From a virus, in the IMG/VR virus record IMGVR_UViG_3300045988_161245, positions 64,001 to 128,000 of that record: DNA of 64,000 nucleotides, one strand, 5' to 3'. Below are positions 16,129 to 63,635 of the stretch, piece after piece. The notes under the pieces are model-generated. The model worked only from the letters and a program-made list of their open reading frames with translations. It ran no database searches and had not been told where the DNA came from. The position numbers and the translations under genes were made by a program. Position 1 is the first letter of the stretch. Each line of letters opens with the position of its first letter.

Positions 16129-17172
16129 TTGGATGAAAATACTGACAAGTATAAAGTTGTTATAACAGACAATTCTATCCTATCTATTATTGAATCAAAA
16201 GGTCTTGAAAATTCCCCAGATAATCAGATTTGTGCATGTGCTTCTACAATTGAAAATGTTATTTTTGTTACAAACGATCTTGCATGTAAAACAATTGCTA
16301 AATGGATTTTTGGTTTAGATGTTGAAAGTGCGATTGAAAATAATTTTGATTATTATAAAGGATACCAGGAAATAAGTCTGTCAGAAGAAAAGATGGCTTA
16401 TTTTTATGAACATCTTAATGAAAATACATTAAATCTTTTGATAAATGAATATGTACTGCTTAAGGATGAGAACGGAAATGAAGTAGATACATTAAAATGG
16501 GATGGTGAAGCTTACCAGTCAATTAGATGTAAACCATTTAAATCTAATATGTTTGGGACATTAAAACCATTAGATAATATTCAGGCATTTGCAATGGATT
16601 CAATTAACACTAATGATATTACAGTATTATACGGTAAGGCTGGTTCAGGTAAAACTACTCTTCCGCTTAATTATATTATGCAAGAAATTGAAAAGGGTAG
16701 ATTTAAAAAATGTTACATTATCTATTCTTATGAGCCATTAAAAAATGCAAAGACGCTTGGATTTGAAAAAGGTGATCATCTTACAAAACTTCTTTATTAT
16801 GGTTCTATTGGAAATATTCTTGCATCAAAATTTGGTGATATGCAGCAAGTAGAATATATGGTTGAACGTGGAATGTTAGATATTATTCCAACTGCAAATA
16901 TACGAGGTATAGAGCTTGAGTCGGATAGTATTTGCCTCGTAACAGAATCTCAGAACTTGGATGTTTATACTTTAAAAACAATAATTCAACGTTGTAAATC
17001 TGGATGTAAACAGATTTATGAGGGAGATATTATTGAACAGAAAGATACTAATATTCAAAATATCGGAATGAATAGACTTATTGACGTGTTTAAAGGTAAC
17101 GAAAGTTTTGGATGTGTCAAATTGAAAAATAACTATAGATCAAAGCTTAGTGAGCTTGCGGATCTTATGTGA
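16129..17172 (+). CDS. phoH: PIN-domain / PhoH-like ATPase (YlaK-type); the true N-terminus probably lies upstream, near 15955
   Basis: Walker A GKAGSGKTT with a PhoH-like C-terminal half. The in-frame upstream extension (open from 15937) encodes the first PIN motif (KFYDTNAVL...LQELEHIK) but has no ATG/GTG/TTG. Confidence 0.7.
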   Translation: MDENTDKYKVVITDNSILSIIESKGLENSPDNQICACASTIENVIFVTNDLACKTIAKWIFGLDVESAIENNFDYYKGYQEISLSEEKMAYFYEHLNENTLNLLINEYVLLKDENGNEVDTLKWDGEAYQSIRCKPFKSNMFGTLKPLDNIQAFAMDSINTNDITVLYGKAGSGKTTLPLNYIMQEIEKGRFKKCYIIYSYEPLKNAKTLGFEKGDHLTKLLYYGSIGNILASKFGDMQQVEYMVERGMLDIIPTANIRGIELESDSICLVTESQNLDVYTLKTIIQRCKSGCKQIYEGDIIEQKDTNIQNIGMNRLIDVFKGNESFGCVKLKNNYRSKLSELADLM

Positions 17173-17212
17173 CTATAAAAATAAAAGATTAAAAGGAAAG
17201 CAGGTAAAACGT

Positions 17213-17833
17213 ATGGATATTTTACCATTATCCCTTGTTGGGACAACAAAAGAAAGTGACGTTCCTACTCCAGAAGAATATACCTACTGGGAGGATCGAA
17301 AAAATAGAACATTCTATATTGATTTTGAAATTGAAGAAGATTATGCATTAATTGAACTTGCAAAAATCATTATTCAGTTAAATATTGCCGAAAAAGATAT
17401 ACCAACTTCCGAACTGCAGCCGATCCGCTTATTAATACACTCTTTCGGTGGAGATCTTGAACAGGCAAACTTCTTTGCAGATTTATGTATTGCTTCGCGC
17501 ATTCCAATTATTACAGTTGCTATGGGAGTAGCTATGTCAGCAGGATTTATTATTTTCCTATCCGGACATAAGAGATATGCATTTAAACATACTCAAATGA
17601 TGGTTCATTCTGGAAATGCATCATTTTCCGGTACTGCGGAACAAATTGATTCTGCACAGAAAAATTATAAGAAACAGATTGAGGATATGAAGTCTTATGT
17701 TCTTGAGCGTACATCTATTGATGAGAAAACTTTCAATAAAAATAGATCTAAAGACTGGTATCTCACTGAGGAAGAGTTAAAAAAATATAATGTTGTTGAT
17801 GAGATTATTTCTGATATTTCAGTTATATTTTAA
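17213..17833 (+). CDS. clpP: ClpP-family serine protease
   Basis: LLIHSFGGDLEQANFFADL...VAMGVAMSAGFIIFLSG...MMVHSG matches the S14 ClpP core, including the Ser (MSAG) and His (VHSG) motifs. Confidence 0.7.
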   Translation: MDILPLSLVGTTKESDVPTPEEYTYWEDRKNRTFYIDFEIEEDYALIELAKIIIQLNIAEKDIPTSELQPIRLLIHSFGGDLEQANFFADLCIASRIPIITVAMGVAMSAGFIIFLSGHKRYAFKHTQMMVHSGNASFSGTAEQIDSAQKNYKKQIEDMKSYVLERTSIDEKTFNKNRSKDWYLTEEELKKYNVVDEIISDISVIF

Positions 17834-19873: not shown

Positions 19874-20076
19874 ATAGAATTTTTCATTTTTTGATAAACC
19901 ACAGGGCTGTAATAGTCCTGTGGTAAATATAAAATCGTTATTTTATGTGATGTGATTTGCCGTGAGGCAATTACTTTTTTCGCTCATTATTATAAAATTT
20001 TCTGAAGAGGTGATGGTTAGTGCTGTCATCTCACATAAGATAACGAAATATTTTGATAAAAGGAAGTGATGAAGAA

Positions 20077-21033
20077 ATGGCAGTTGAACGAAGTAAACCT
20101 ATATTATTATATGACGCAGAAAAAGCTAAACAGGTTAATCCGGAAACATTAAGATTGTTTCAAAAATATCAAATTGATATGTCAATTAGAGACCTATCAG
20201 AAAAGACAATTAGGGGTTATAATTCTGATTTAATGCAGTGGTTCATTTATATGTATAATAACCAATTTAATCTATCTGTTCTTGAAGCAAAAGAAGAAGA
20301 TCTTGAAGAATATTATTTCTGGAGAAAACAGCAAGGTAATAATGTTAATCGTCAGAAACGTGTCATGTCTTCTATTTCCGCTTTCTATAAATTTCTTCGT
20401 AAGAAAAAACTCATTACAGAATCCCCAATGGAATTTATTGATAGACCAAAACAAGGACAACCTGTTGTTGTACAAACTTATTTAAAAAAGGAAGAAGTGC
20501 AATTTATGAGAGAAAAACTTTCTGAATATGGTGATGTTCAGTTACAGGTTTATGCTTTTTTATCTCTCACTACAATGGCCAGAGTTAATGCAATTGCTCA
20601 TTTGAAATGGGATCAAATCAATATGGAAGAACGTATTTGCTCTGATGTGCTTGAAAAAGAAGGTAAAATTGTAGAGCTTTCATTTAGTGAAGAAACTCGC
20701 GATTATATGAATGAATTACGTAAATATAGAGAAGACAATAATATAGATGATTATGGTTGGGTGTTCAAAACGGCTTATACAAATGAGAAACAATGTGTAA
20801 GTAATGATACTCTAAATGAATGGTGTAAAAAAATTGGTAATATGATTGGGCATCCTACATTACATTGTCATGATTGGAGACATAGCTATGCTAGTCTGCT
20901 TAAGGAAAATGGGGCAAGTTTAGAAGATGTTTCAGAAATGCTTAATCATGCAGGAACTGATGTTACTAAGAAATATTACATAAAGGTAGATCATTCTAAG
21001 GTTAGAAAAATTAAGGATTCAATCAAAATTTAA
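20077..21033 (+). CDS. int: tyrosine recombinase / integrase
   Basis: Core-binding N-terminal domain. C-terminal catalytic motifs ARVNAI (R), HDWRHSYAS (HxxR) and LNHAGTDVTKKYY (H...Y). The ATG at 20077 has an AGGAAGTGA RBS. Confidence 0.75.
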   Translation: MAVERSKPILLYDAEKAKQVNPETLRLFQKYQIDMSIRDLSEKTIRGYNSDLMQWFIYMYNNQFNLSVLEAKEEDLEEYYFWRKQQGNNVNRQKRVMSSISAFYKFLRKKKLITESPMEFIDRPKQGQPVVVQTYLKKEEVQFMREKLSEYGDVQLQVYAFLSLTTMARVNAIAHLKWDQINMEERICSDVLEKEGKIVELSFSEETRDYMNELRKYREDNNIDDYGWVFKTAYTNEKQCVSNDTLNEWCKKIGNMIGHPTLHCHDWRHSYASLLKENGASLEDVSEMLNHAGTDVTKKYYIKVDHSKVRKIKDSIKI

Positions 21034-22411: not shown

Positions 22412-22509
22412 CTAAATAGGACTACTGTCCTATTCTATTATTCTTCTCTTTTCTTTGTATTTTTCATTTTCATGATTATTTCTCCAAGCTGGGCTTCGGT
22501 CCAGCGTCT

Positions 22510-48377: not shown

Positions 48378-48544
48378 TAATATATGTGTTGAAGTTATCC
48401 GTCCTTATATTATAAGGATGTAATATACAGTCTGAACTCACGCAATAATCTAAATTTTATGAAACGTGAGACATAGGTAGAAATGCCTATGCGCCATACT
48501 AATTTTGTGTGGTTAGTAGAGCTTGTCTCGAAAGTAACAGCTTG

Positions 48545-49321
48545 AATAATTTTTCCATCTCCACCGATGGGTTAGCATCAGCATTACAAAGATCAGCATC
48601 TGCTCTTAAAACAGCAGGTAATAATATAGACGAAAGTATAGGATTAATTACGGCAGGCAACCAGGTTGTGCAGGACCCAGAATCCGTTGGTGCCGCAATG
48701 AGAACGATTGCTCTCCGTCTAACAGGAACAAGCGTTGCCGTTCAGCAATTGCAAGAACTTGGCGAAGAGACAGATGGTGTTGTAACAACTGTTTCTAAGC
48801 TTAGAGACGTAATTATGAGCGCAACAAAAGTCGCTTCTAATGGTTTTAAAGGTATAGATATTCTTGATAATAACGGAAACTACCGTTCAACGGCAAGTGT
48901 ATTACAGGATATAGCAGATATCTATAATGAGATCGAAGAAACCGATAAAAAGACCAAAAGTAACAATGTAAATCTTTTGCTTGAAACAATTGCCGGCAAA
49001 AACCGCGCAAATACAGCTGCTAGTATATTGCAGTCACCTGATATTTTAAGGGAAGCAATCGAGTCATCAAAAAATGCGAAAGGCTCGGCAGATCGTGAAA
49101 ATGAGACGTATTTATCTTCGTTAGAAGCTCATATCACCCAACTTCAAACACAGCTCCAAGAGCTTGCAACAGTAACTATCAACTCAGATATGTTTAAAGG
49201 CGTAATAGATACAGCAACCGCCTTTCTTAACATCGTAACTCAGATCCTGGATAAACTTCCACTGCTCTCAACAGCAATTGGTGGTCTTGCAGGATTTAAA
49301 CTTTCAAAAGCAGGTCTGGGT
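48545..49321 (+). CDS. tape measure protein, exon 2 (259 codons)
   Basis: Continuation of the TMP core (NNFSISTDGLASALQRSASALKTAGNNIDESIGLITAGNQVVQDPESVGAAMRTIALRLTG...). The ORF-track entry 48509..49354 includes intron sequence at both ends. Confidence 0.65.
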
Positions 49322-49733
49322 AAACAGCTTAACATAAAGTTAGTTTCAATTTAAAATTTTATCGTAGTTAAGATGCCCATTTGATATGCTGCTGTCATAA
49401 TCGCGACAGTTAGTATAGAACTTGTTCAAGATGGTGATTCGACACCTATTGACAGACCTTTAGCCTTAGAGCTATAAAGCCGAATATCGGAGGAAGCCGT
49501 AATCCACATCACTGTGGTACCTTAGTTCTGAAAATGAATGAAAGGGATATATTGAAGATGGTAGTTCCGACACGTTAGCAAGCACATATGTTTAAATTTA
49601 CAAAAGTGGATGATAAATTCACGAATAAAACGCAATTATAAAAGGAAGAAAGAAATAGAGAGTAGAAAGTTGCAGGTAACAACTCTCCACTCTCTTAAAA
49701 GACTAAAAGGAGATTACAAAAATATGAACTAAA

Positions 49734-50364: not shown

Positions 50365-50395
50365 CACCACGGCTTGCAAACGTGGTGTTTTTATT
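50365..50395 (+). terminator. terminator-like hairpin (caccacg...cgtggtg + TTTTTATT)
   Basis: 7-bp GC-rich stem plus a T-run. If the intron model holds, this could instead be an intron peripheral helix. Confidence 0.45.
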
Positions 50396-50424
50396 ATTTT
50401 ATTGAAAAAGAAGGTGAATATTTT

Positions 50425-50616
50425 ATGTGTGTTAAAATTTTTGATCATATTTTTTTAATAAGTAATTATGAGGTTATAGATTATTATAATAATGAAGAGG
50501 TAAATAAATTACATAGCCAAATATTACTTTCACCTCAAGATATAAAGGAGTATTTTGAATGGCTCTTTATAAAAGGTAAACATTATTTTTGCGGTCATCC
50601 AGGAGGATTATTGTGA
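50425..50616 (+). CDS. small partner protein S1 (MxVKxFD family), convergent with and overlapping the peptidase gene
   Basis: 63 aa with an AAGGTGA RBS. Paralog of 61819..62037 (MCVKIFDHIFLISNYEV vs MYVKFFDCELFIDSHEI). Confidence 0.55.
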   Translation: MCVKIFDHIFLISNYEVIDYYNNEEVNKLHSQILLSPQDIKEYFEWLFIKGKHYFCGHPGGLL

Positions 50617-51150
50617 TCTTAAAACAACTGTATTAATATTTGTATTTACATTATTATTTACTTTTGCTCTATCATTTATTATTATTTTCATATCATTAAT
50701 AATGTTAGAAAAATCTTTTTGAGTATCTACAAATAAATCAAAGTCATAATCACCTATAGCCATATAATTTATCGGTAGTAATTTACTAATACGACATTGA
50801 TGTTTTTCAGTACCTATAAGATATATTTGTGGTATTTTACACTTATTAAATCCTACAATAAGTAAATGAATTCCATCATTTGATGCATGATTTTCTTCAT
50901 AATCTTTCACTTCTTTATATACGCATTCTACATCATTTGTGTCTAATAATATTGATTTAATTTCTAAATATATTTTTAGGCAATCAAAATCATTTTTACT
51001 ACCAGCATAAGCAATAACAACTTTATCACTAATTTGATAAATCTTATTCTCGTTTTCAGTAACTATATTACTGTTTTTATCAACGATTCTGGAATCACCG
51101 CACACAATGATATCATTATCTTTAGATATTGCAGCAATAACTAGACTCAT
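50608..51150 (-). CDS. HslV/proteasome-beta-like Ntn hydrolase with N-terminal Ser (copy 1)
   Basis: 180 aa with a GGAGGT RBS. MSLVIAAISKDNDIIVCGDSRIV...NKIYQISDKVVIAYAGSKNDFD aligns by eye to HslV TTIVSVRRNGHVVIAGDGQ...[23 protein letters not shown] (nucleophile, Asp and Lys positions conserved). Confidence 0.6.
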   Translation of the reverse strand: MSLVIAAISKDNDIIVCGDSRIVDKNSNIVTENENKIYQISDKVVIAYAGSKNDFDCLKIYLEIKSILLDTNDVECVYKEVKDYEENHASNDGIHLLIVGFNKCKIPQIYLIGTEKHQCRISKLLPINYMAIGDYDFDLFVDTQKDFSNIINDMKIIINDRAKVNNNVNTNINTVVLRSQ

Positions 51151-51189
51151 GTTATACCTCCAATTTTATATTTTAAATATGTTAAAAAA

Positions 51190-51621
51190 TCATTTAAATA
51201 TTCCATTGGCAATATCGGTAATAAATTTAGGATCAGTAACAGCTACTTTAGCAACTTCTACACATACTGCTGAGATCATATTTATAGAAGAAATACCTAC
51301 AGATTTTAATTTAGCTTTACTCTTCCTCCATATAGAGTCAGGTCTAATTGATTCTGCTAATTTATGTCCTTCGAATGTAACATCATAAATTTTACAGTTT
51401 TCATATTTATAGTTATCATCTATAGAATACGATCCTTCTAAGAATCTTCCGTCAAATAAGTTTTTCACACAATATTGTACATCCTCTTCAGTGTATTTGC
51501 CTGAAAAGTGATCCTTTATATCTTTTAACATAATCCGCTTGAAATCTCCATTAAGTTTCATATTATCTTGTTCTTCAATATATAAGAGTACATCTCTAAA
51601 ACAATCATAGTTTAATATCAT
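51190..51621 (-). CDS. DUF2513-like winged-helix protein
   Basis: The ATG at 51621 has a GGAGGATTGAAT RBS. MILNYDCFRDVLLYIEEQ... and DVTFEGHKLAESIRPDSIWRKSK match the DUF2513 pattern (..iL..iEe.., LTweGHeFLd.ir...vW.k.k), recalled from memory. Confidence 0.5.
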   Translation of the reverse strand: MILNYDCFRDVLLYIEEQDNMKLNGDFKRIMLKDIKDHFSGKYTEEDVQYCVKNLFDGRFLEGSYSIDDNYKYENCKIYDVTFEGHKLAESIRPDSIWRKSKAKLKSVGISSINMISAVCVEVAKVAVTDPKFITDIANGIFK

Positions 51622-51652
51622 ATTCAATCCTCCATAGAAAGGTCGTGAAAAT

Positions 51653-52077: not shown

Positions 52078-52764
52078 TTAATTTGTATTAGGTTTATTAT
52101 ATTTTTCTATATGTTCCTTTATTGTAGTCTTGACTAAATTATGTAATTTAATTTGATAATTAAGCAATACATTATAATTATATTTTGTTGTTGACAAAAA
52201 ATATTCCGTTATCTCTATAAATAATGAACGAAACATATCTGGTACATACTTATAACTATAAACATATTCGATATTATGCTTTTTAAGTGATGTCAAATAT
52301 CCAACACAATAATATAAAAGTCTTTCGTCACAATATACCTCACCTTTTAAAATAGGATCATTTGGTAATATAAAACTCTCAGTTAAATTTACTATTCCTT
52401 TATCTACATATTTTTTATATGAGAAATTTTCTATTTTTAAATGTATATCCATTTCAACTTCTGAAGCGTGAACTTCAGAATATATGTACATTAATTTAAT
52501 AAAATCTTCAAGCGGATAATTTAATAACTGAGTAGAATCATATACATGTGTGAACTCGTGAAAGAAAATTCCTTTGTATATTTTTGATTCATCTAATTGT
52601 TTGTTAACTTTTAGTATATATTTTTGATTATACAATTCCAATGTATTGAATTGTGCGGCTGCACAATCTCTTTTGTCAACTTCAATATATTCTTGTATTT
52701 CTGGAATTTCATAATATAACTCGTTGTATTCCTTAAATATTTTATCAAGATACTCTTTGTTCAT
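52078..52764 (-). CDS. HExxH zinc metallopeptidase (ImmA/IrrE-like?)
   Basis: The ATG at 52764 has a GGAGAT RBS. GIFFHEFTHVYD contains HExxH, with a downstream Glu-rich YSEVHASEVE. Confidence 0.5.
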   Translation of the reverse strand: MNKEYLDKIFKEYNELYYEIPEIQEYIEVDKRDCAAAQFNTLELYNQKYILKVNKQLDESKIYKGIFFHEFTHVYDSTQLLNYPLEDFIKLMYIYSEVHASEVEMDIHLKIENFSYKKYVDKGIVNLTESFILPNDPILKGEVYCDERLLYYCVGYLTSLKKHNIEYVYSYKYVPDMFRSLFIEITEYFLSTTKYNYNVLLNYQIKLHNLVKTTIKEHIEKYNKPNTN

Positions 52765-52793
52765 TTTTATCTCCTGCATAGAAAGGAATTATT

Positions 52794-53000: not shown

Positions 53001-53005
53001 TAGCT

Positions 53006-53545
53006 TTAATTTTCAGCCTTCATTCTATAACCACAGTTGTTGCACACTAACTCCACTTTATTAGTAGCAAATCCCATGAATAGTCCATATTTCTTCCTAA
53101 CCGGTGTAAAGTTGGTGCCGTTACATTTTGGACAATGACGAGTGTTAACTTCCTGCTGTTTTGCATTTTGTTGTGCTAAATATTCATTGTATCTTTTATC
53201 TAATTCTTCTTCAGCCTTGGCATTTATAATGTTCATTTGATTAGTATATTTGATGATGTCATTTGTATATAAATCGAACATTGTTGCAACAAAACCAGGA
53301 TCATTATTACCATATTCACAGAAATTAAACATATCGTTAAAACTCATATTAGGAACTGGTGTTAATTTATTTCCACATCCAGGACATAAATCTAAACTTT
53401 CACCACTAAGAATACCTGCATAATCTTTAGGTTTATTTGAACTTATTGAAAACATAGATTTTGTGCGTCCTTGTGGTTGTTTAAGTTTATTTCCACTTTT
53501 TAAAATGCATTCTCTACAATAATATATAATCTTATTAGAACTCAT
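53006..53545 (-). CDS. triple zinc-ribbon protein
   Basis: 179 aa with a GGAGGTTGG RBS. CxxC pairs at YYCRECI, CPGCGNKL and CPKCNG...CNNCGY. Confidence 0.6.
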   Translation of the reverse strand: MSSNKIIYYCRECILKSGNKLKQPQGRTKSMFSISSNKPKDYAGILSGESLDLCPGCGNKLTPVPNMSFNDMFNFCEYGNNDPGFVATMFDLYTNDIIKYTNQMNIINAKAEEELDKRYNEYLAQQNAKQQEVNTRHCPKCNGTNFTPVRKKYGLFMGFATNKVELVCNNCGYRMKAEN

Positions 53546-53610
53546 ACGCCAACCTCCAAAATATAATATTATAATGCAAGTATAACATTATATTCTCCAA
53601 TATTCAATTG

Positions 53611-56600
53611 GTCTTTAACTACGATAAAGCAACAGGAAAAGTTGGAAGTAATAAAAATAATTTAGAAAATGCATTAACAGAAGTAAAAGATTTCTTTCTA
53701 AAAAAACAGGATATAGAAAAGCCATATACACTTAGCAAAGATGAATATTCATTTTTTGAGAGAATGAAAAAAGAGCTTTCTGATTCTCAGTTAAATGGAT
53801 CTGCGGAAGATTCTAAAGATGCAATGCTACAACTGGCAGAAGAAATTACAGGTGCAGATAGCTCATTGGTCAAATATATCCAAGACACAGATGTAGCGTC
53901 TGTTTCTCAAGTCGGTTTTGCTCAATCACAAAAAACAGTAATTCAAGGAACAACTAAATTTAGTGCTGTAATGAAAACGGCCGGTGGAGTAGCAAAATCA
54001 TTTGTAGCTACCCTTGGAAGTATGGCTGTAGCCGCCGCAGCAGCTTGGGCTATCGGTAAAGTAATTGAGGGTATTGATTATCTTTATCATTACGATGAAA
54101 ATATCATCAAAGCTGGACAGGAAGCAAAGGATTCCATTGACAGTACATTTAAAAGTTTCGAAGAAGGTAAGCAGTCTATCATGGACCTTGGCTCTTCATT
54201 TGGCAATCAGACAGAGCAGATAAAAAATACCGGTGATGCAATCGATCAAGTTGCCGAAAAATATGTAGAGCTTCGTAAGGGAGTAAATCAGAATACAAAC
54301 GAGAATGTATCATTATCTACAGACGAGTATCAGCAATATATTGATCTCAGTAGTAAGCTTGCCTCTCAGTTTCCTGGTCTGGTAGCAGGTTATGATAGTC
54401 AGGGAAATGCTGTATTAAATCTTGCTTCCAATGCAGATAAGGCTGCTGATAGTATTCGTAATTTATATGAAGCACAAGTTTCTTCTGCAAATGTTGATAT
54501 GGGGAAAAATCTACAAGCAACATATGATGGTGTTGTTACACAGACAAGTCAATATGCTGAGGATATCCAGAAAAAACGTGATGAGTTAGAACAATTAGAT
54601 ACTGATATTTCTGAGAACAAACGTAGTATTTTAACATATGGAAGTAACAATTTTGAAGTACAAGGGCTGTATGGTGATAAAGAAAATGTTATTACTGATG
54701 TTCTAAAAGAGAATGGACTGTATAAAGAAAATACAGGAGATGACGGAAGTATTTGGAACTTCTATGCCGAAGGTCTCGCTGATAAGTCAAAAAAAGAAAT
54801 AGATAGGATGAATGAACAGATTACAGCTGGTTTGGAATCCTATAACTTGTCACTAGAGACTCAAAGAAGCCAACTTCAGAGTGAAATTAACTCCTACGAT
54901 TTAATGATTGAAGATCAATGGCGTAGTATGGCACAATCTCTTGGAAACTATCTTCAGACATCAAAATCATTTAATGAACTTGATGATAGTCTTCAAAGTG
55001 CATTTCTTGCCAACATTTCAAACCTTGACTTAACTGCCTTAAATGATCCAGATGGTAAATACCAAGGACAGGTGCTTGATTTCTTGTATGGAGAATTCAT
55101 TGGACCAATGTCTCGGTTTAGTGCGGATGTACAAGAAAGTCTTGCAGATGCATTACAGATTGATCCTTCTAAATTGACTATTGATGAGTATAAGTCACAA
55201 GTTGATGAAGCATTTAATAAAGCATTTCCAAAGGAAGAAGATGCAGATAAACGAGATAGATTCAAAAACGCTTATGGAATTGATTCTTCTATTGAGGATA
55301 TGGAGGATAATGCATCTCGTCTCAAAGAAGCATATGCAGATTTTCCAAATGCCAGTGATTTTATTGACCATATGCAGACAGGTGATCTGTCAATTGCTGC
55401 ACAGTTAATTGATAATGGTTCAGTTGATATTGAGAAAGGCACAGATGGATTAGTTTCTGCCATTGAAAGATATAAGAAAACGGTAGCTGAAGCAAAATCT
55501 GATACAACTCTTGCTTCTGTTCTTGGCGATTCCGATAATGAAATCTCATCTTCTATTGATTCTTTACAGTCAGATATTTCTTCTTTATCAGATACTCTTA
55601 CCAAGCTTAAAACAGGTGAGTTCAAAGATTCAGATCTCACCGACCTTATTCAACAGTTTCCACAGTTAGCCGATCAAACAGATAATCTTCAAGAAGCTAT
55701 CTCCAATCTTCAGGCAGATAAATTAAAGTCTACTTTGAAAAAAATTGACGATTCTATGGATGGAGCTTCTGATGAAGAGTTAGCTAATGCACAAAAATTA
55801 AAAGATTCTTTAATTAAGTCAGTTGACCTATCTGATATTAATTCAGACAAGATTACAGAATCAATCAAAAGTGCTTTTGAAGGTGATGGCGGAAGTAGGT
55901 ATATTGCTGCAGAACATGGAGCAAAAGCTGCTGAAGAATACAACCAAGCATTTTCAAAAGAACTTAAAAATAGTGCTGGACGAGAAGCTTTCTATAAGGC
56001 AACATTAAATCAAGATGCTGTAAAACAGGGACCTGATGCAATACGTGAATTATATAATCAGTATTTAAAGACAGCCAAAGACATCATCCAAGATACAGAT
56101 ATCCAATCACAGCTTACAAATTATCAGGATAAATACCAGTCACTCTATCAAGCTCAGAAAGATCTAAAGAACGGTCTAATGACTGGTTCTACCAAAAAGA
56201 CATTTCTGGACAAGTTTCCAGATCTTGCAAAGTATGCAGGAAACACTGAAACACTCTCTTCTGCTATTGATGATCTGATGGATTCTATGGACAGTGATGT
56301 AACTAACCAGTTTACAGATGCTATTAAAGCTCTTCAGGATGCCGGACAGTATGCAGATGCAAGTGCATTACAATCTTATGTTGAAGCTGTTTTAGATGGT
56401 GCCCATGATATCGAGGGTGCTTATCAGAAGATCGCAGGTCTTAAAATTCCTACACCTAAGTACGCAGAACTTAAAGAAGCTCTTGAATCTTCAAACGAGG
56501 GTGATCTTTACAATGAACTTCTCTCTCAGTATAAAACCGCAAAAGAGGCATGGGAAAAAGGTGAAGTTGGTACAGATGACTTTAAGTCTTTTGCTTCTAT

Positions 56601-59600
56601 TATTTCTCCTACAGGTGTATCTGATGCAGTAAACTTTGGTGAGAATCAAGCAATGTTTGAAAGATACTTCCAGGATACATCTACTGGTGTTGAGAACTTC
56701 TTAGAAGATCTACAGAAGCTTGACCTTGCTTCTAATGAAAGTGGTCATTGGACCAGTACATTAGGAAATAACCTTGATGAAATGCGAGACGCTGCACAGA
56801 GACTTAATATGGGCTTTGAACCATTTATGATGATGTTTGGTCGTCTCGAAGATTATGGTGCTACTACTGACTTCTTCACTACGGAAGAGGATGGGCAACA
56901 GCATTTATCTGATCTCTATCAGCAGATTGCAGAAAAGAAACAAAAACTTGCAGAAATTAAAGCAGATCCGGATTTAGCTGGCGATCAGTCTGCTATTGAT
57001 TCTCTCAATAAAGATTTAGATGAACTTTATGCGAGAGTAGAAAATACAAAAACTGGAATTGAAGAGCTTCCGGACAAAGCAACTTATTATGAAGCAAAGA
57101 ATCTCGAACAGGCTAAATCAGTTATCACTCAGATGCAGGACGAAATTAATCAGGCAGCTGCAGAAGGAAATGATGAATTAGTCAAAATTCTTGAAAAGAC
57201 TCGTGATCAATATTTAAAAGAAAACGGATATATTCTTAAAGAACAGCCACAAGGTCCAACTCAGCAAGGGACTATTGAAAATCCGTTAGCAAGAGAATTC
57301 ACAAATCCAACTAAATTTGGCGATTATGAGACAGTCATCAAGAAGATTCAGAATGCGACAGATGAACAGACATCTTCTCTTGAGAAAAATCTTAAAGTAT
57401 TAAGCCAATATTCTGAATCTCAGCTCAGTGGAATCAATTTATCCGATGGACAGTATGATACCGGTTTTGAGGATGCCGAACAAGCACTTGACAACCTTTC
57501 TAGCACATTTGGTCTTACAAAAGATCAAGCGGTACAGTTAGCAGCTGTTCTTTCTGATATGGGGCTGATTAAAGCAACTCCTAAAGTTGACTTAACTACA
57601 GTTCAGGATCAGATTGATAATGCAAAAGATGAGTTACAGGATAGTAATATTACTGTTGATTTAGATTTTGATATTTCTACTTCTAGTAAAGAAGAACTTC
57701 AAAAAAAGAGTCAAGAAATTCAGAATGAGCTGAATAATAACGCATCTCTTTCTGATTCTCAAAGAACATCTTTACAGGGAGTAAAAGATTCTGTTGATAA
57801 CCAGGTTGTTACGCTTACAGTACAGGAAAAAGTTGAAAAAGATGGTGATGTAGACGAGCTTCTTGCAATGGATGATCAAACACTTGCCACAACACTTGAC
57901 CTTGATGTTAATAATGCTGACCAATTATCAACAGCTAGGGATGAGCTACAATATATTAAAGACAATCAAGATGCTCAAATTGATATGACTGTTAAACTGG
58001 ATGAGACACAGTTTAATCAGCTATTAGGTGACGGTGAGAACGCTTCTATTGATGTTACAGCAAACAATGAAGAAGCAAAAGAAAAGATAGATGAAGCTAA
58101 GAACTATGCAGAAAGTCAGAAACCTCAAATGAAAATTGATGGCAACAATGATCCTGCTATCAATAAAGGTACTTCTGCTACTCAGATGATCAACAACATG
58201 ACTGGAATTATTAAGGTTAATGCTGACACATCGGGTATGGCAAGTGCTATTAATTCTGAATTGTCAAAGCCTCATACTATCAATATTTCCGCAAATGTGT
58301 CTACGCATGTTAGTGGTGGAACAGGTAAATCTACAGGAACTATGATTAGTGTCGCTCATGCCGATGGAACTGCTTATAATGTTATCAATTATACTCCTGC
58401 TCACGCAAGCGGAAATGTAACACTTTCACATGATGAAACTGCTTTAGTTAACGAAGAAGGCATTGGCGCTGAATCAATTGTGCGTGATGGTAAATGGATG
58501 ATTATTCCTGGTGGTGCCCATTTTGAAAATCTAAAAAAAGGTGACTTAATCTTCAATAAAAAGCAGACATCCGAGCTTATCAATTCAGGACATGTTACAT
58601 CTGGAGGTGGACATGCTAGAGCTTATGCAAATGGTACTGTTGGTGCTTATGCAGGAGGTAATTCTGGTGTTTATTTAAACTGGGATAAAAATCGTACTCA
58701 AGTTGGCAATCAGTCAACATCATCTCCCTCTAATTCCACAATTACCGATAAAAATACAACTTCTGTTAAGAAAAATACAGACACCGTAAATGACAATACC
58801 GAAAAGATAAAAAAATCTACTAAGGTATATGACTGGGTAGAAACTCGTATTAAGCATTGGTCTGATCAGGTTCAAAAAATCGCTGATAAAATCACCGACT
58901 ATATTAAGAAATCACTTAAAACATCTTTGCTCAAACAGCAAATTCGTAAGATGAACTATGAGATTGGTTCAAATGAAAAGGGTGCAAAAGCCTATATGAA
59001 AAAGGCTAACTCTATAGCAAACGAGTACACTTATTACAATAGTGATGGCGAAGAAATTAAAACCAATGTACCAAAGAAATATCAGAAGCTTGTCCAAACA
59101 GGTGCTTATCGTATTGAAGATATGGACACTTCAACAGATCAGGGTAAGGCTCTGGCAGAGGCTATCGATCAGTATAAGACATATTATGACAAAGCACAGG
59201 ATTGTAAACAGGCTGTTGTTGATCTGAAAAAAGAGCAGCTGGAATTGTTTGAACAGTGGGCAAATATGCCAACTGAAAAAGCAGAGCAGAAATTGGAACG
59301 TTTACAAAACGGATTTAATGGATTGAATGCAACTCAGTCAAGGTTATCTGCTGTTCAGACAGGTGGATCAACACAAAAAGCTATAGCAGACGCTGCTACT
59401 GCAAGTTACGAATCAGCACAGGTAGTTACAGAAAAAGCACAATCAAATCTTGACACAGCAACTGCGAAAGCAGATAAGGCAACTACAGCTGTAAATAGAA
59501 AGAAAAAAGCACTTCTTAAATCAAAAGGTCTTACGAATGAGCAGAAAAAAGCTATTAAATCCGGAAAGACTATTGATACCAGTAAGATTACTAACAAGAC

Positions 59601-61755
59601 TACGAAGAAACGTGCCGAAGAGTATAATTCTGCAGTTAAAAATAAAAAGAAAGCAGATTCTAAAAAGAAAACGGCTCAGACTAAATTTAACACTGCAAAT
59701 AAGAATTCTTCATCTCTTAAGACAGATGCAGAAACAGCAATCGCCGGATATCAGGAAGGAAACGAACTTTCCTATATGGATTCCTTAACTGATCAGAATG
59801 TGACACAGACAAAGCAAGCTGCAGATATTAACAACAAGGCTTGGGAGGAAACTAAGAAAAATCTTAACGCACAGGAGAAAGCCAAGAAACAAGCAGACGA
59901 TAAGGTTAGTAAAAAAGCTAAAGCTATTAAGAAAAAGTTTGGTAGTAAACTGAGTGATAATCAGAAAAAGAAATTAGCAGCAGGTAAAGAAATAAATGTC
60001 GATAAGATAAAAGACAAGTCTCTTAAAAAGGCTCTTACAGCATATAATAAATATGTTACTACTGCAGCCGAAACAGAACAGAAATTAAATATTGTCACAG
60101 ATGCAGAATCAACAGCGGCAGCTAATGCAGCGGAATCACAGACAGAAGCAGCTAAAGCCACAGTCGAAGCTATTCAAAGTAAATTTGATAATGCGAAGAC
60201 GTATTATGAAGGATTGTTAGGATATCAGGAAAAGTATAATGAAATGGAAGAAGCAAACATTGATTTATACAATGCTCATGGAAATTATGAGCGTTCTTCT
60301 GATTATGAGATTAAGATCTCAAATACTGAAAGTCTGAGAAATATTGCACAGGATAAAGTTGATGAGCTTGAGAAAAGATTTCAAGAAGGTGTTGATAATG
60401 GCACAATTGTAGAAGGATCTCAGGAATGGATTAATATGAAATCCGAGATTGTAGAAGCAAAAAAAGCTGTAACCGATTACGACACAAGTATTGAAAATCT
60501 GAAACAGCAACAAATTGGTGTTTATTATGAAGAACAGTTTGATCGTGCAATAGAGAAAATTGATCAGTTCAAGGACCGTATTGATATACTAAATGAAATC
60601 ATCTCTGATGATATGAAAGTTGATAAGAATACTGGACTACTTACAGAATTGGGAGCTACTTCTGTAATGTTGAATAGAAATCAGTTTTCTGCAAATCAGA
60701 AAGAAATACAAAAGCTTCTTGAAAAAGAAAATGATGTGAAAAAACGATACGCTAATGGCGAAGATATGTCTTCTGAATTTGGCGAAAAGACTTATGATGA
60801 ATATATAAAAGACATTCAGTCTAAATATAATTCTTTAATTTCATCAAATAGTTCTCTTCAAAATGATATGCTCTCTCTTGTCAAAAATCAGGCTCAAGCA
60901 GAACTTGATGCTCTTAATAAAGTAATATCTAAGCGTAAGGAAGCCCTTTCCGCAAAGAAAGACTATTACGATTACGATAAAACTTTAAAGGATAAGACTA
61001 AAGACATTCAGATCCTTGAACGTCAAGCGGCAGCTCTCCAGGGTTCAACAAACGCTGAAGATAAAGCACGTTTGGCAAAGATCCAGGAACAATTATCAGA
61101 TGCAAGAGAAGATCTTTCTGATACTATGACAGACCATGCTTTCAGTATGCAAAGTGATGCGCTTGATAAATTATCCTCAGATATGAGTGATGATTTTGAC
61201 AAATGGTCTAACGACATAAGCTCTAACGTAGAGAAAATGAGTAAAGCTATTAATGAAGCAGTTTCAAATTCTGCTCTTAGTAATGCGCAGGTTCTCAATA
61301 ATCTTTCTACTATTCTGAAAAATGTTGGATTAACAGATGAGCAGGTTAACTCTACATTATCAGGACTTACCGGTTATGCTTCCGGAACTGACTATGTTCC
61401 AAAATCTGGTATGTACAGAGTTAACGAAAATGGAATGGAATCTGTACTGTCAAGAAAATACGGTACTCTCACATTCTTAAATCAGGGCGATAAAGTATTT
61501 ACAGCAGACTTCACCAAGAGACTTATTGATAATGCAGGTATTGCCACACAGAGTAGTCAACCACAATTTGGCGAGATGTATAAGGAACTTATGAATGCGA
61601 TTACCAACACAAACAATCAGTCTTATGAACATAGTACAGTTTACAATATTGTTGTAAATGAAGCTACTGATGCAAACGCAGTAGGTGATATTGTCGTTAA
61701 GAAGATCGATGCATACGAAAAGAAGCGTGTAAGAGATTTTAAGAGTCTCAGATAA
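53611..61755 (+). CDS. tape measure protein, exon 3 (2714 codons)
   Basis: The giant ORF (track 53608..61755) has no RBS. It starts with a hydrophobic segment (LGSMAVAAAAAWAIG) that complements the one ending exon 2. It is dominated by coiled coil and carries a TMP C-terminal-type motif twice. Confidence 0.7.
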   Translation, partial: VFNYDKATGKVGSNKNNLENALTEVKDFFLKKQDIEKPYTLSKDEYSFFERMKKELSDSQLNGSAEDSKDAMLQLAEEITGADSSLVKYIQDTDVASVSQVGFAQSQKTVIQGTTKFSAVMKTAGGVAKSFVATLGSMAVAAAAAWAIGKVIEGIDYLYHYDENIIKAGQEAKDSIDSTFKSFEEGKQSIMDLGSSFGNQTEQIKNTGDAIDQVAEKYVELRKGVNQNTNENVSLSTDEYQQYIDLSSKLASQFPGLVAGYDSQGNAVLNLASNADKAADSIRNLYEAQVSSANVDMGKNLQATYDGVVTQTSQYAEDIQKKRDELEQLDTDISENKRSILTYGSNNFEVQGLYGDKENVITDVLKENGLYKENTGDDGSIWNFYAEGLADKSKKEIDRMNEQITAGLESYNLSLETQRSQLQSEINSYDLMIEDQWRSMAQSLGNYLQTSKSFNELDDSLQSAFLANISNLDLTALNDPDGKYQGQVLDFLYGEFIGPMSRFSADVQESLADALQIDPSKLTIDEYKSQVDEAFNKAFPKEEDADKRDRFKNAYGIDSSIEDMEDNASRLKEAYADFPNASDFIDHMQTGDLSIAAQLIDNGSVDIEKGTDGLVSAIERYKKTVAEAKSDTTLASVLGDSDNEISSSIDSLQSDISSLSDTLTKLKTGEFKDSDLTDLIQQFPQLADQTDNLQEAISNLQADKLKSTLKKIDDSMDGASDEELANAQKLKDSLIKSVDLSDINSDKITESIKSAFEGDGGSRYIAAEHGAKAAEEYNQAFSKELKNSAGREAFYKATLNQDAVKQGPDAIRELYNQYLKTAKDIIQDTDIQSQLTNYQDKYQSLYQAQKDLKNGLMTGSTKKTFLDKFPDLAKYAGNTETLSSAIDDLMDSMDSDVTNQFTDAIKALQDAGQYADASALQSYVEAVLDGAHDIEGAYQKIAGLKIPTPKYAELKEALESSNEGDLYNELLSQYKTAKEAWEKGEVGTDDFKSFASIISPTGVSDAVNFGENQAMFERYFQDTSTGVENFLEDLQKLDLASNESGHWTSTLGNNLDEMRDAAQRLNMGFEPFMMMFGRLEDYGATTDFFTTEEDGQQHLSDLYQQIAEKKQKLAEIKADPDLAGDQSAIDSLNKDLDELYARVENTKTGIEELPDKATYYEAKNLEQAKSVITQMQDEINQAAAEGNDELVKILEKTRDQYLKENGYILKEQPQGPTQQGTIENPLAREFTNPTKFGDYETVIKKIQNATDEQTSSLEKNLKVLSQYSESQLSGINLSDGQYDTGFEDAEQALDNLSSTFGLTKDQAVQLAAVLSDMGLIKATPKVDLTTVQDQIDNAKDELQDSNITVDLDFDISTSSKEELQKKSQEIQNELNNNASLSDSQRTSLQGVKDSVDNQVVTLTVQEKVEKDGDVDELLAMDDQTLATTLDLDVNNADQLSTARDELQYIKDNQDAQIDMTVKLDETQFNQLLGDGENASIDVTANNEEAKEKIDEAKNYAESQKPQMKIDGNNDPAINKGTSATQMINNMTGIIKVNADTSGMASAINSELSKPHTINISANVSTHVSGGTGKSTGTMISVAHADGTAYNVINYTPAHASGNVTLSHDETALVNEEGIGAESIVRDGKWMIIPGGAHFENLKKGDLIFNKKQTSELINSGHVTSGGGHARAYANGTVGAYAGGNSGVYLNWDKNRTQVGNQSTSSPSNSTITDKNTTSVKKNTDTVNDNTEKIKKSTKVYDWVETRIKHWSDQVQKIADKITDYIKKSLKTSLLKQQIRKMNYEIGSNEKGAKAYMKKANSIANEYTYYNSDGEEIKTNVPKKYQKLVQTGAYRIEDMDTSTDQGKALAEAIDQYKTYYDKAQDCKQAVVDLKKEQLELFEQWANMPTEKAEQKLERLQNGFNGLNATQSRLSAVQTGGSTQKAIADAATASYESAQVVTEKAQSNLDTATAKADKATTAVNRKKKALLKSKGLTNEQKKAIKSGKTIDTSKITNKTTKKRAEEYNSAVKNKKKADSKKKTAQTKFNTANKNSSSLKTDAETAIAGYQEGNELSYMDSLTDQNVTQTKQAADINNKAWEETKKNLNAQEKAKKQADDKVSKKAKAIKKKFGSKLSDNQKKKLAAGKEINVDKIKDKSLKKALTAYNKYVTTAAETEQKLNIVTDAESTAAANAAESQTEAAKATVEAIQSKFDNAKTYYEGLLGYQEKYNEMEEANIDLYNAHGNYERSSDYEIKISNTESLRNIAQDKVDELEKRFQEGVDNGTIVEGSQEWINMKSEIVEAKKAVTDYDTSIENLKQQQIGVYYEEQFDRAIEKIDQFKDRIDILNEIISDDMKVDKNTGLLTELGATSVMLNRNQFSANQKEIQKLLEKENDVKKRYANGEDMSSEFGEKTYDEYIKDIQSKYNSLISSNSSLQNDMLSLVKNQAQAELDALNKVISKRKEALSAKKDYYDYDKTLKDKTKDIQILERQAAALQGSTNAEDKARLAKIQEQLSDAREDLSDTMTDHAFSMQSDALDKLSSDMSDDFDKWSNDISSNVEKMSKAINEAVSNSALSNAQVLNNLSTILKNVGLTDEQVNSTLSGLTGYASGTDYVPKSGMYRVNENGMESVLSRKYGTLTFLNQGDKVFTADFTKRLIDNAGIATQSSQPQFGEMYKELMNAITNTNNQSYEHSTVYNIVVNEATDANAVGDIVVKKIDAYEKKRVRDFKSLR

Positions 61756-61765
61756 ACACAGGATG

Positions 61766-61796
61766 GCGTAGTGTCACAGCTACGCTCTCTTTTATT
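61766..61796 (+). terminator. Rho-independent terminator after the TMP gene
   Basis: gcgtag-tgtcacag-ctacgc followed by TCTCTTTTATT. Confidence 0.55.
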
Positions 61797-61818
61797 AATT
61801 TTGAACAGAGGTGCAATT

Positions 61819-62037
61819 ATGTATGTAAAATTTTTTGATTGTGAATTATTTATTGATTCACATGAAATAAAAATAAAAAATAAAAGAGGAAGTTCCGGAC
61901 AATCTTATGGCGAACATTTTATTCCACCAAATAATGTAAAGGATCTCGTTGAGGAATTTCTAGTTCCAACTGTGTATCAACATAAGTGTATTGAAGAACT
62001 TATGAAAAGAAAACCAGATCCTAACATTAAGTGGTAG
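61819..62037 (+). CDS. small partner protein S2 (MxVKxFD family), convergent with and overlapping peptidase copy 2
   Basis: 72 aa. The ATG at 61819 has an AGAGGTG RBS. Paralog of 50425..50616. Confidence 0.55.
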   Translation: MYVKFFDCELFIDSHEIKIKNKRGSSGQSYGEHFIPPNNVKDLVEEFLVPTVYQHKCIEELMKRKPDPNIKW

Positions 62038-62587
62038 GCGATATATTTTCATTAGCAGTAACCGTACCATTAATTGATGAATCTGTTCTAGCTCTTTCTT
62101 CAATCATTTTTGCAATTTTAAATTTGATTGCTTTAATATCATCATTTTCTTTATCAAAATTTAATACACAATCCAAATCTCCTATAGAGACAGTTCTTTC
62201 TTTAAAATAGTCATAGTTGCCAATAGCTGTTTCACTAGCTCCAATAACATACAAATGTGGATTATTATTACTATCATAACCGGCAGCTAAAAAATGTAAA
62301 TCACCTTTTTCATTTTTATAATTTTCTTTTTCGTATTTTAAAGCTTCTTTATAGATGCTATCAACATCCCATTTACTGTAGTCAAGATGAACTAAATTTA
62401 TATGTATTCTTAAAGGTGTTATTTTTGTATCGTGACCAGCAAAAGCAACAATTAAAGAATTGTTAAATTTAAAGACTTTTCTTGTATCTTCTGTAAGAAC
62501 TTCATTAGTTATTGGATTTACAGATCTTCCTTCTCCGTACACAATAATATCATTATCTTTTGAGATTGCAGCAATTACTAGACTCAT
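62027..62587 (-). CDS. HslV/proteasome-beta-like Ntn hydrolase with N-terminal Ser (copy 2)
   Basis: The ATG at 62587 has a GGGAGAGAAG RBS. The first 16 residues (MSLVIAAISKDNDIIV) are identical to copy 1 and the rest is diverged. KVFKFNNSLIVAFAGHD. Confidence 0.6.
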   Translation of the reverse strand: MSLVIAAISKDNDIIVYGEGRSVNPITNEVLTEDTRKVFKFNNSLIVAFAGHDTKITPLRIHINLVHLDYSKWDVDSIYKEALKYEKENYKNEKGDLHFLAAGYDSNNNPHLYVIGASETAIGNYDYFKERTVSIGDLDCVLNFDKENDDIKAIKFKIAKMIEERARTDSSINGTVTANENISPTT

Positions 62588-62687
62588 CTTCTCTCCCATC
62601 CTTCAAACAAATCTATATATAAAATCCATTATGATTCAAGTAATAATTTTTGTCAATAATAGTCTGAATAGAAAGTAGGTGATTAAT

Positions 62688-63635
62688 ATGGCTATATTTG
62701 GCTCTTCTTTTACATATAACGGAAAATCTTCCGATGATTTTGGAGTTATTATTTGTGCCTCTGAACAGCCAGAATCAATTCCAATGGGATTAACAAGAGA
62801 AATTTTAAAAGGTGAAATTACAAGCAGACGACCTGTATCAAATTGGTATAATACAAAATATTCAGATGTACTTACATTTGAAGTAACAATTACCAAACCT
62901 GAAAATCGTGCTTTTTCAAGAGAAGAAGTTAGAGATATAAACGCCTGGTTAACAGGACCACGTACACCTACTCTTCTATTTTTTGAAGATGAAGCTTTTG
63001 ACCCTATTAATTATTATGGAGTTTTTACAGATGTAACTAACGTATATGGCAGTGGTGTTTTAATGCTTACATATACATTTACTGCAGATTCCCCATATGG
63101 ATGGAGTAACGAACGTGAGTTTGCTTACAACAACTTAGAGAATTGTTTACTTACAGTAAATGATAAAAATGTATCTGTAAACAATAAAAATGTTGAGGTG
63201 ACAATTCAAAACGCAGAATTATTTGAAGTGAACAATGATACAGATGAGATTGGTGATTTTACATATCCGTTAATAGCAATTTATTCTTATGCAGGTACGC
63301 AAATTACAATTGATAATTATTCCGAAATTTCTACTGATGATTTATTAAGTCATAGTCTTACTCTTACAATTCCAAATGCAATTGATTACACAAATCCACT
63401 TTATATAGATTCAAAAAATCATAAAATTTATTATTACAGTAATACAAAGAAAAAGAATATTCCGGTTCAATTATCCGATCTTGGGGTTACATCTGACAAC
63501 CTTACAAATTTAGATAATGGTAGTTTGGGATTATATTGGGTTAGGTTAGTTCCTGGTGTAAACAAATTTAAAATAACAGGTGGATGCAGTATTAAAATGA
63601 CATTCAGATGCCCAAGAAAGGTAGGTGCCTATTAA
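62688..63635 (+). CDS. distal tail protein (Dit)
   Basis: MAIFGSSFTYNGKSSDDFGVII...LKGEITSRRP...YSDVLTFEVTI fits the siphovirus tail-component N-terminal pattern. Lies downstream of the TMP gene, after the inserted 61819-62587 module. Confidence 0.65.
   Translation: MAIFGSSFTYNGKSSDDFGVIICASEQPESIPMGLTREILKGEITSRRPVSNWYNTKYSDVLTFEVTITKPENRAFSREEVRDINAWLTGPRTPTLLFFEDEAFDPINYYGVFTDVTNVYGSGVLMLTYTFTADSPYGWSNEREFAYNNLENCLLTVNDKNVSVNNKNVEVTIQNAELFEVNNDTDEIGDFTYPLIAIYSYAGTQITIDNYSEISTDDLLSHSLTLTIPNAIDYTNPLYIDSKNHKIYYYSNTKKKNIPVQLSDLGVTSDNLTNLDNGSLGLYWVRLVPGVNKFKITGGCSIKMTFRCPRKVGAY

Follow-up and report, generated by a model that had tools for sequence, protein, structure and literature searches.

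A predicted proteasome-fold peptidase and its convergent small partner gene in polymorphic cassettes beside a giant phage tail gene

Here we describe a two-gene cassette in a 64,000-nucleotide (nt) stretch of viral DNA (IMG/VR record IMGVR_UViG_3300045988_161245, positions 64,001 to 128,000; hereafter the window, with positions counted from its first letter). One gene encodes a predicted stand-alone peptidase of the proteasome fold (peptidase 1, minus strand) and the other a protein of 63 amino acids (aa; small partner 1, plus strand); the two converge and share their 3' ends, as an initial annotation made from the letters alone had placed them (Table 1). A paralogous pair lies in the same window on the far side of a giant tail gene, homologues of the peptidase in other metagenomic or viral loci are likewise accompanied by a convergent, overlapping small open reading frame (ORF), and cassettes of different type are found in otherwise near-identical phages. 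The reading that we consider most plausible, although still tentatively, is that of an early-expressed peptidase and a cognate small binding or inhibitor protein, which together form a polymorphic conflict or regulatory cassette. We favour it because the pairing persists across wide divergence and in two genomic slots, the overlap is kept, the two proteins co-vary, small genes occur without a peptidase and not the reverse, and an alternative peptidase-like gene can occupy the same slot.

The peptidase and its small partner

Peptidase 1 matches Pfam family PF00227 over the cut-off (E=2.5e-8, 34.2 bits against 22.4 bits), and a profile made from 25 of its homologues retrieves proteasome alpha and beta subunits from the PDB (E=2e-6 to 1e-3). 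Its AlphaFold2 model, with a predicted local distance difference test score (pLDDT) of 89.3 and a predicted template-modelling score (pTM) of 0.87, has the alpha-beta-beta-alpha sandwich of proteasome beta subunits and HslV, and the top Foldseek matches to this model in the PDB are 20S beta subunits and HslV only (probability 1.0, template-modelling score 0.6-0.77). Helices H1 (residues 52-65) and H2 (74-88) are present in the model, together with a single helix (147-164) where H3 and H4 are expected, and the usual GSG(G)/H3 region is replaced by IGD plus a loop. Across the 25 aligned homologues there is no variation at S2, R21, K36 and G50, and position 19 is occupied by either D or E in every one; these residues are the counterparts of Thr1, Arg19, Lys33, Gly47 and Asp/Glu17, respectively. 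Both the resemblance to HslV and the serine nucleophile with its Asp, Lys and Gly positions, which the initial annotation had picked out by eye, are thus borne out. In addition, the start is Met-Ser behind a ribosome-binding site in all peptidase loci, and the family therefore lacks a propeptide. On the strength of profile and model, the 180-aa ORF is a proteasome/HslV-fold N-terminal nucleophile (Ntn) peptidase that uses Ser as its nucleophile and has a predicted peptidase activity.

The first 17 residues are identical across all homologues, while identity in the remainder falls to approximately 30%. Because synonymous sites vary freely in this N-terminal stretch, the constraint acts at the level of the protein, and an element operating at the DNA or RNA level was ruled out as its cause.

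The enzyme shares with HslV the fold, a similar size and an N-terminal nucleophile that would be exposed by removal of Met, and its serine recalls that of CodW, the HslV (ClpQ) of Bacillus subtilis, whose nucleophile is Ser. It is, however, no closer to HslV than to 20S subunits in profile searches and reaches neither of the HslV equivalog models (TIGR03692, 17.4 bits against 157.75; NF003964, 17.1 bits against 137), and the archaeal proteasome models of NCBIfam give weak matches far under their cut-offs. No HslU-like or other AAA+ unfoldase turned up among the scanned ORFs of the window, in agreement with what had been noted for the neighbourhood of the gene, or among the called genes of related loci.

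Judged by how its sequence has changed, the small ORF is a real gene whose protein is under purifying selection. The ratio of nonsynonymous to synonymous substitution rates (dN/dS) of the small gene is 0.09-0.36 among close pairs, comparable to that of the peptidase, and 0.09-0.27 for small partner 1 against its counterparts in two related loci (L005 and L001); homologues retain the reading frame and an N-terminal M-x-V-K-x-F-D motif. Two sequence groups can be told apart within the family, FDH/FNF...WLF and FDC[DE][IL]FID. AlphaFold2 models small partner 1 (pLDDT 77.8) as a four-stranded beta-meander with one helix (37-48) and a disordered C-terminal tail, and Foldseek found no significant match to this model in the PDB (best E 0.68). 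The protein ends in a GHPGG motif that is not kept across types, GG being present in types A to C only. A modifier resembling ubiquitin or Pup, considered in view of the 63-aa length and the GHPGG tail, was rejected, as there is no beta-grasp fold and GG is not conserved, and a connectase-like ligase with "HPGG" as its recognition motif was likewise rejected given that the motif is not conserved and that the peptidase model lacks the S3/S4 insertion.

Table 1. Coordinates of the two gene pairs, their putative control signals and neighbouring genes (positions in the window unless a locus is named)
Feature	Position	Strand	Remarks
Small partner 1	50425..50616	+	63 aa; begins MCVKIFDH; ribosome-binding site GAAGGTG
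Peptidase 1	50608..51150	-	180 aa; begins MSLVIAAISKDNDIIVCGDSR; ribosome-binding site GGAGG
Overlap of pair-1 3' ends	50608..50616		9 nt; convergent genes
Terminator-like hairpin (CACCACG...CGTGGTG) and U-run	50365..50400	+	folding free energy (dG) -11.1 kcal/mol, z=-3.6; directly upstream of small ORF 1
Small partner 2	61819..62037	+	72 aa; begins MYVKFFDCELFIDSHE
Peptidase 2	62027..62587	-	186-aa paralogue of peptidase 1
Terminator-like hairpin and U-run	61760..61800	+	dG -14.8 kcal/mol, z=-4.4; between giant-gene stop and small ORF 2
Sigma-70/sigma-A-like promoter	62656..62628	-	TTGACA-17-CATAAT, 11/12 consensus matches; upstream of peptidase 2
Giant tail (tape-measure-like) gene	53608..61755	+	2715 aa; 2500-2850-aa counterparts in all related loci
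PhageMin_Tail gene	48509..49354	+	borders the island on one side, with the giant gene on the other
DUF2513 (winged-helix) gene	51190..51621	-	PF10711, E=1.7e-15, residues 46-153; directly upstream of peptidase 1
HExxH (HEFTH) protein gene	52078..52779	-	233 aa; weak Peptidase_M76 match, E=0.14
Zinc-ribbon protein gene	53006..53545	-	179 aa; first gene of minus-strand island, divergent from giant gene
DUF6558 tail protein gene	62679..63635		after peptidase 2
PhoH-like ATPase gene	16129..17172		approximately 33 kb from pair 1
ClpP-like protease gene	17150..17833		approximately 33 kb from pair 1
Integrase-family gene (tyrosine recombinase)	20053..21033		
HELMH (HExxH) protein gene	L048, 3258-3911	-	weak match to putative metallopeptidase family DUF6782, E=2.4e-4

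Pairing, co-variation and exchange of the cassettes

The second pair of the window, which the initial annotation does not mention (61819-62587), has the same layout, with convergent genes that overlap by 11 nt. Peptidase 2 shares 32% identity with peptidase 1 (E=9e-27), begins with the same 16 residues and also exceeds the PF00227 cut-off (E=1.1e-5, 25.6 bits). Small partners 1 and 2 give no BLASTP alignment with each other; profile-profile comparison nonetheless links small partner 2 to the group that contains small partner 1 (probability 86%, E=5e-6, collinear from residue 1), and on this basis, together with the shared N-terminal motif and the shared position, we regard the two as homologous. 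As pair 2 lies directly 3' of the giant gene, the two pairs flank it, and across related loci cassettes occupy two corresponding slots, namely slot A, bounded by the PhageMin_Tail and giant genes, and slot B, bounded by the giant and DUF6558 genes.

Our comparison covered 34 loci with close-family peptidases and the window, and about 50 metagenomic or viral loci when all homologues are taken together. All 19 distinct peptidase/small pairs in the 34 loci and the window are convergent, with small ORFs that belong to one family and 3' overlaps of 4-29 nt, and five further IMG/VR contigs show the same convergent overlapping arrangement. It extends to distant peptidases (P0060, P0068, P0132 and P0204, approximately 24-38% identical among the set), each of which has a convergent small ORF overlapping it by 24-66 nt; two of the small ORFs of distant relatives have an M-x-x-K-V-x-D-like start, and the rest are not recognisably homologous. 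The distant relatives, too, lie in a tail module with zinc-ribbon genes upstream, and one of them is on a 1.1-Mb contig. Consistent with the two-gene system that had been proposed, not one peptidase was seen without a small gene among the loci examined, and a hidden Markov model of the small family, run over the window and the loci, placed every member either next to a peptidase or in tandem with one that is.

Among 1.84 billion representative proteins the peptidase profile had 16 matches at E<1e-10 and 227 at E<1e-3; the sources of the homologues are all metagenomic and, according to the sample names, from the human gut. Among deposited phage genomes there are no close DNA relatives of positions 46-56 kb (megablast) and no matches to the peptidase protein (tblastn), and scans of viral contigs with single distant peptidase proteins as queries found nothing. 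A distant module in L041 (1028-12434), with zinc-ribbon genes, peptidase and convergent small ORFs, is probably a prophage remnant because it lies between xanthine/uracil permease and phosphofructokinase genes; it may also be a domesticated island of a bacterial chromosome.

Nine types of cassette can be compared. Mean pairwise identity of the peptidases is 0.87 over columns 1-20 and 0.29-0.49 elsewhere, and that of the small proteins is 0.67 over columns 1-8 and 0.2-0.45 elsewhere, and hence both genes are conserved at their outer 5' ends and variable toward the centre that they share. Divergence of the small protein follows that of the C-terminal part of the peptidase (rho 0.89) much more closely than that of its N-terminal part (0.47). 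In slot A the cassettes differ between the window and phages that are 96-98.5% identical to it in the flanks, with the breakpoint of homology approximately 20 nt inside the small ORF, and the peptidase of L026 is a recombinant whose C-terminal half, together with the small gene, is of the window type. The pair, which may lie upstream or downstream of the giant gene, also moves as a unit.

Copy number is variable, with 0-2 peptidases and 1-3 small genes per locus; many loci have two small genes and one peptidase, and two or three small genes for no or one peptidase are found in L001-4, L023-25, L027-31 and L044-51. Tandem small genes without any peptidase also occur. In slot B of L048 and L049 there are two or three small genes but a proteasome-like peptidase is absent; its place, behind the same TTGACA-17-CATAAT promoter and ribosome-binding-site region, is taken by the gene of a 224-aa HELMH protein. 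One of the small genes without a peptidase in L048 is disrupted, and its DNA is 97.9% identical to the slot-A small gene of the window, which indicates transfer between slots.

These patterns have to be weighed against the absence of any functional link, in which case unrelated accessory genes would merely travel together through their adjacency in a recombination hotspot. The slot does take other genes as well (HExxH, DUF2513 and zinc-ribbon genes), and all of the co-variation evidence is confounded by linkage. However, each peptidase has its small-gene neighbour in either genomic slot and down to approximately 25% identity, the convergent 3' ends overlap in every case although the sequences that do so differ, and neither the window nor the loci contain members of the small family in any other place, which makes an accidental association quite unlikely in our judgement. 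The co-variation with the C-terminal part of the peptidase and the existence of small genes without a peptidase lend indirect support, at the sequence level, to a relation of enzyme and inhibitor or of toxin and antidote, as first suggested for the pair.

Strict co-occurrence and co-variation would suit equally well a small protein that is no inhibitor and serves as the dedicated substrate of the peptidase, either cleaved or ligated as by connectase, or as an adaptor that delivers, for instance, the giant tail protein. The invariant MxVKxFD hairpin and the 17 N-terminal residues of the peptidase could then form an enzyme-substrate interface, the disordered C-terminal tail of the small protein would be in keeping with such a role, and connectase provides a precedent for specific protein modification by a proteasome homologue (PMC8665760). 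Small genes without a peptidase, or beside the unrelated HExxH protein, would nevertheless be substrates without an enzyme, and neither a helical insertion of the connectase type between S3 and S4 in the model nor conservation of GHPGG across types is found; we therefore hold a substrate or adaptor role to be unlikely.

Transcription signals and the proposed role of the pair

At the junction of pair 1 there is no hairpin or terminator (folding z-score about 0 on both strands), and past peptidase 1 the minus strand has no terminator before 49695..49657. As no terminator separates the convergent genes, the transcripts of the peptidase and of the small ORF must be mutually antisense. The terminator-like hairpin ahead of small ORF 1 recurs in L016, L017, L026 and L034 irrespective of cassette type, and the one ahead of small ORF 2 is conserved in L007, L009, L020 and L032. 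The initial annotation had supposed that the small gene is co-transcribed with the tail genes; given a conserved hairpin and U-run upstream of both copies, this does not seem to hold in its simple form, and read-through would be needed. The peptidase gene is antisense to the tail genes, as had been stated, and the promoter hexamers upstream of peptidase 2 are kept in all slot-B loci, including L023 with its diverged spacer. Promoters and terminators were called as consensus matches only; because the sigma-A-like promoter opposes the strand of the tail genes, it suggests that the peptidase is expressed early, or at least independently of the late genes.

The initial annotation had gone further and proposed a peptidase active in the lysogen, as a defence or toxin, with the small protein as an antidote made only in the lytic cycle, so that the two would never be expressed together. 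The moron-like layout, with its own promoter and antisense to late genes, is in line with this idea, as are the island's G+C content of 0.288 against 0.32-0.37 in the flanking sequence, an integrase-family gene in the window and the distant relatives found on the 1.1-Mb contig and between bacterial genes, and HK97 gp15 is a precedent for a moron that mediates superinfection exclusion (PMC3594210). The close relatives, on the other hand, are on viral contigs of 180-217 kb, no prophage copy was found in the 185,579 species reference genomes of GTDB by a search that detects close relatives only, no PADLOC model matches, and a terminator-like hairpin stands between the small ORF and the late genes. 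A lysogen-versus-lytic switch is accordingly not supported, and we rate it as very improbable.

A role in tail morphogenesis, in which the peptidase would process the giant protein or another tail component with the small protein as an assembly cofactor, both being core tail genes, must also be considered. The pair is always next to the giant or the PhageMin_Tail gene, whichever side it lies on, and this extends to relatives at approximately 25% identity. Furthermore, the N-terminal third of the giant gene (53557-56071) is approximately 70% identical in UViG_7000000036_000202 against 97-98.5% over the remaining gene, and in such mosaic relatives this block varies together with the neighbouring slot-A island. 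Yet the peptidase gene runs opposite to the tail operon behind a host-type promoter. Moreover, copy number varies (0-2 peptidases and 1-3 small genes per locus), types are swapped between near-identical phages, and the unrelated HExxH protein can replace the peptidase, all of which is unlike a core morphogenetic protease. A morphogenetic function thus appears improbable to us.

Under the reading that we prefer, a peptidase with a cognate binding or inhibitor protein, a sigma-A-type promoter of the host kind would drive the peptidase gene in the direction opposite to the tail operon, and removal of the initiator Met would expose Ser1 as the nucleophile. The cognate protein of 63-72 aa would bind its own peptidase, mainly via the variable C-terminal two-thirds, and would either restrain it or set its specificity, as an anti-peptidase or immunity factor. 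The antisense run of each transcript into the other gene might add a mutual antagonism at the level of transcription or RNA. Cassettes would be swapped by recombination within the conserved 5' ends of both genes, and beside the giant gene a phage may have a single cassette or one on each flank, along with extra small genes that have no peptidase. Physical binding, inhibition, the timing of expression and the substrate of the peptidase are all points that we infer; the overall pattern fits a conflict module, of phage against phage or of phage against host, better than it fits a housekeeping enzyme.

Several points weigh against this proposal. Physical linkage confounds the co-variation, since adjacent DNA encodes the parts that vary together, and the constant place beside the giant tail gene, also in distant relatives, could point to a tail-related role. 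Immunity and antitoxin genes are usually co-directional with their partners and not convergent. Small genes without a peptidase may simply be decaying, as the disrupted copy in L048 illustrates, and expression of the small ORF may be low or conditional with a terminator-like hairpin just ahead of it. In addition, promoter-like sites in AT-rich regions are about as frequent as in shuffled sequence, and in the Foldseek search of the PDB no known inhibitor or solved fold resembles the small protein.

A more specific version, which we regard as rather unlikely, is a protease-immunity system in phage-phage or phage-host competition, in which the early peptidase would destroy a specific target while the small proteins shield the phage's own proteins. 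Possible targets are a host defence protein or the giant tape-measure-like protein that a superinfecting relative ejects, and extra small genes without a peptidase would protect from the phage's own peptidases and from those of rivals.

Genomic surroundings and relation to known systems

Peptidase 1 is the last of four genes in a minus-strand island, after those of the zinc-ribbon, HEFTH and DUF2513 proteins. Zinc-ribbon counterparts of 179-182 aa occupy the same place in L012, L016, L019, L023 and L024, and the window HEFTH protein shows weak similarity to the HExxH protein of L048 around the motif. The DUF2513 gene probably starts at Met44 of the ORF at 51750, and 143-aa orthologues lie upstream of the peptidase in L012 and L019. 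In slot A of L005, L016-19 and L034, a gene for a protein of 181-184 aa with a C-terminal CxNCG..W.PG zinc ribbon lies just upstream of the peptidase, its stop approximately 20 nt ahead of the peptidase ATG; this protein may be a third recurrent component.

On the other side of small ORF 1, positions 49355-50424 comprise 1070 nt without a long ORF, which share 96-98% identity with L016-18 and 88% with L012, L013 and L019 though the adjacent cassettes differ, and whose folding on either strand is far more stable than that of shuffled sequence (z -7.6 and -8.8). We considered whether this ORF-poor kilobase, or the whole island, could be a group I or II intron that interrupts the tape-measure gene, and dropped the idea because Rfam gave no match at E<=1 over 49200-53800. 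Within the region, the minus strand has a 57-aa ORF (49734-49907, MEDVFLFVLTLVGLLILWSLIRR...) whose N-terminus is hydrophobic and whose ribosome-binding site is GGAGGTG, followed by a terminator (49657-49695, 17-bp stem, dG -26.2, z -7.1); the ORF looks like the gene of a small membrane peptide, possibly type-I-toxin-like or holin-like.

Elsewhere in the window, two DUF4379 (treble-clef zinc-finger) proteins are encoded on the plus strand (47064-48377 and 23390-25105). The former has a 580-aa gene and the PhageMin_Tail gene as its neighbours, whereas L005 and other relatives have a single 780-aa gene at this place, and it may be a mobile gene whose insertion split the tape-measure region. Tandem group I introns (RF00028, 82 and 72 bits) are present at 37354-37660 and 37700-37987 on the plus strand, between ORFs 36782-37462 and 37983-38750. 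Four tRNA genes are located at 15597 and 22204-22583, and most other large ORFs of the window have no Pfam match.

Stand-alone proteasome homologues have been described from phages and Firmicutes as the clusters PPH, AAH, CPH and FC1-FC5 (Fuchs, Alva and Lupas 2021, PMC8665760), and about 18 phage proteins with a proteasome-like fold, at 10-17% identity, are present in BFVD; because of these, the window enzyme belongs to a kind already described. It shares with the clusters a compact proteasome beta-like fold of approximately 180 aa, the lack of a propeptide, the Ser/Thr1-Asp17-Lys33-Gly47 residues, the lack of an AAA+ partner and a phage-borne location. It differs from them in its obligate small convergent partner, its cassette polymorphism and its fixed place beside the giant gene, and the 2021 survey gives no genomic context or co-occurring partner for these proteins (PMC8665760). 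PPH, the proteasome homologue of phages and hosts, has approximately 140 residues and no helix H2 (PMC8665760), whereas the window peptidase has 180 aa and both H1 and H2 are predicted in it. By sequence and model, with the clusters compared by description, the window enzyme is accordingly best placed as a divergent member of the stand-alone homologues that is neither an HslV nor a PPH by their defining features. Connectase, a proteasome homologue that acts as a highly specific protein-modifying enzyme (PMC8665760), has a two-helix insertion between S3 and S4, which is missing between the corresponding strands (29-31 and 37-39) of the window model; its substrate is the KDPGA of methanogen MtrA type, while the GHPGG tail of small partner 1 is not conserved in other types.

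The literature yielded no described phage proteasome-like system with a partner and nothing relevant on DUF2513, and PADLOC-DB 2.0 gave no match at E<=1 for the five proteins of island and pair. The novelty that the initial annotation had claimed for the system is therefore upheld in part: stand-alone phage proteasome-like peptidases were known already, whereas the partner is undescribed and has no PADLOC model.

Polymorphic toxin-immunity loci, of the contact-dependent inhibition (CDI), Rhs or colicin type, and toxin-antitoxin modules resemble the cassette in several respects: the N-terminal part of the large protein is constant, its C-terminal part is variable and changes together with the small gene next to it, arrays of small genes occur without the large gene, and cassettes are exchanged between near-identical genomes. 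In those systems, however, the conserved part is a delivery domain and the genes are co-directional, whereas here it comprises the active site of a proteasome-fold peptidase, the genes are convergent and overlapping, and the carrier is a phage tail module. Type I toxin-antitoxin loci of Firmicutes prophages, such as txpA/RatA and bsrG/SR4, are also made up of convergent transcription units whose 3' ends overlap without an intervening terminator, so that their RNAs are complementary. These loci, in contrast, consist of a non-coding RNA and a small membrane peptide toxin, while the present pair consists of two conserved proteins under purifying selection.

The layout also resembles that of HK97 gp15, a moron beside the tape-measure gene that excludes superinfecting phages (PMC3594210). 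The pair, like gp15, seems to be an independent transcription unit between conserved tail genes beside the tape-measure gene, of lower G+C and of variable presence (PMC3594210). A moron would have its own promoter and terminator and an atypical composition; a promoter-like sequence is conserved upstream of pair 2 and the G+C of the island is low, but no terminator follows the peptidase gene before the small ORF. HK97 makes gp15 from the prophage as a single small membrane protein, which acts on incoming phage tails (PMC3594210), whereas the cassette described here is a two-gene unit of enzyme and partner and can be present twice.

Proteasome homologues that lack an ATPase partner occur widely among bacteria and phages, and none of the phage ones has a known function. 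As such, an obligate, co-varying partner is the first testable clue to the role of phage proteasome homologues, and the polymorphic cassettes, the partner genes without a peptidase and the alternative peptidases in the slot are hallmarks of a conflict module. The flanking of the giant tail gene may, in addition, bear on the processing or targeting of tape-measure-type proteins. Should the small proteins prove to inhibit proteasome-fold peptidases specifically, they would represent a new class of protein inhibitor, and if the protease-immunity reading is true, it would give a phage proteasome homologue its first assigned function and establish a novel class of conflict system, in which an Ntn peptidase is paired with a dedicated proteinaceous inhibitor.

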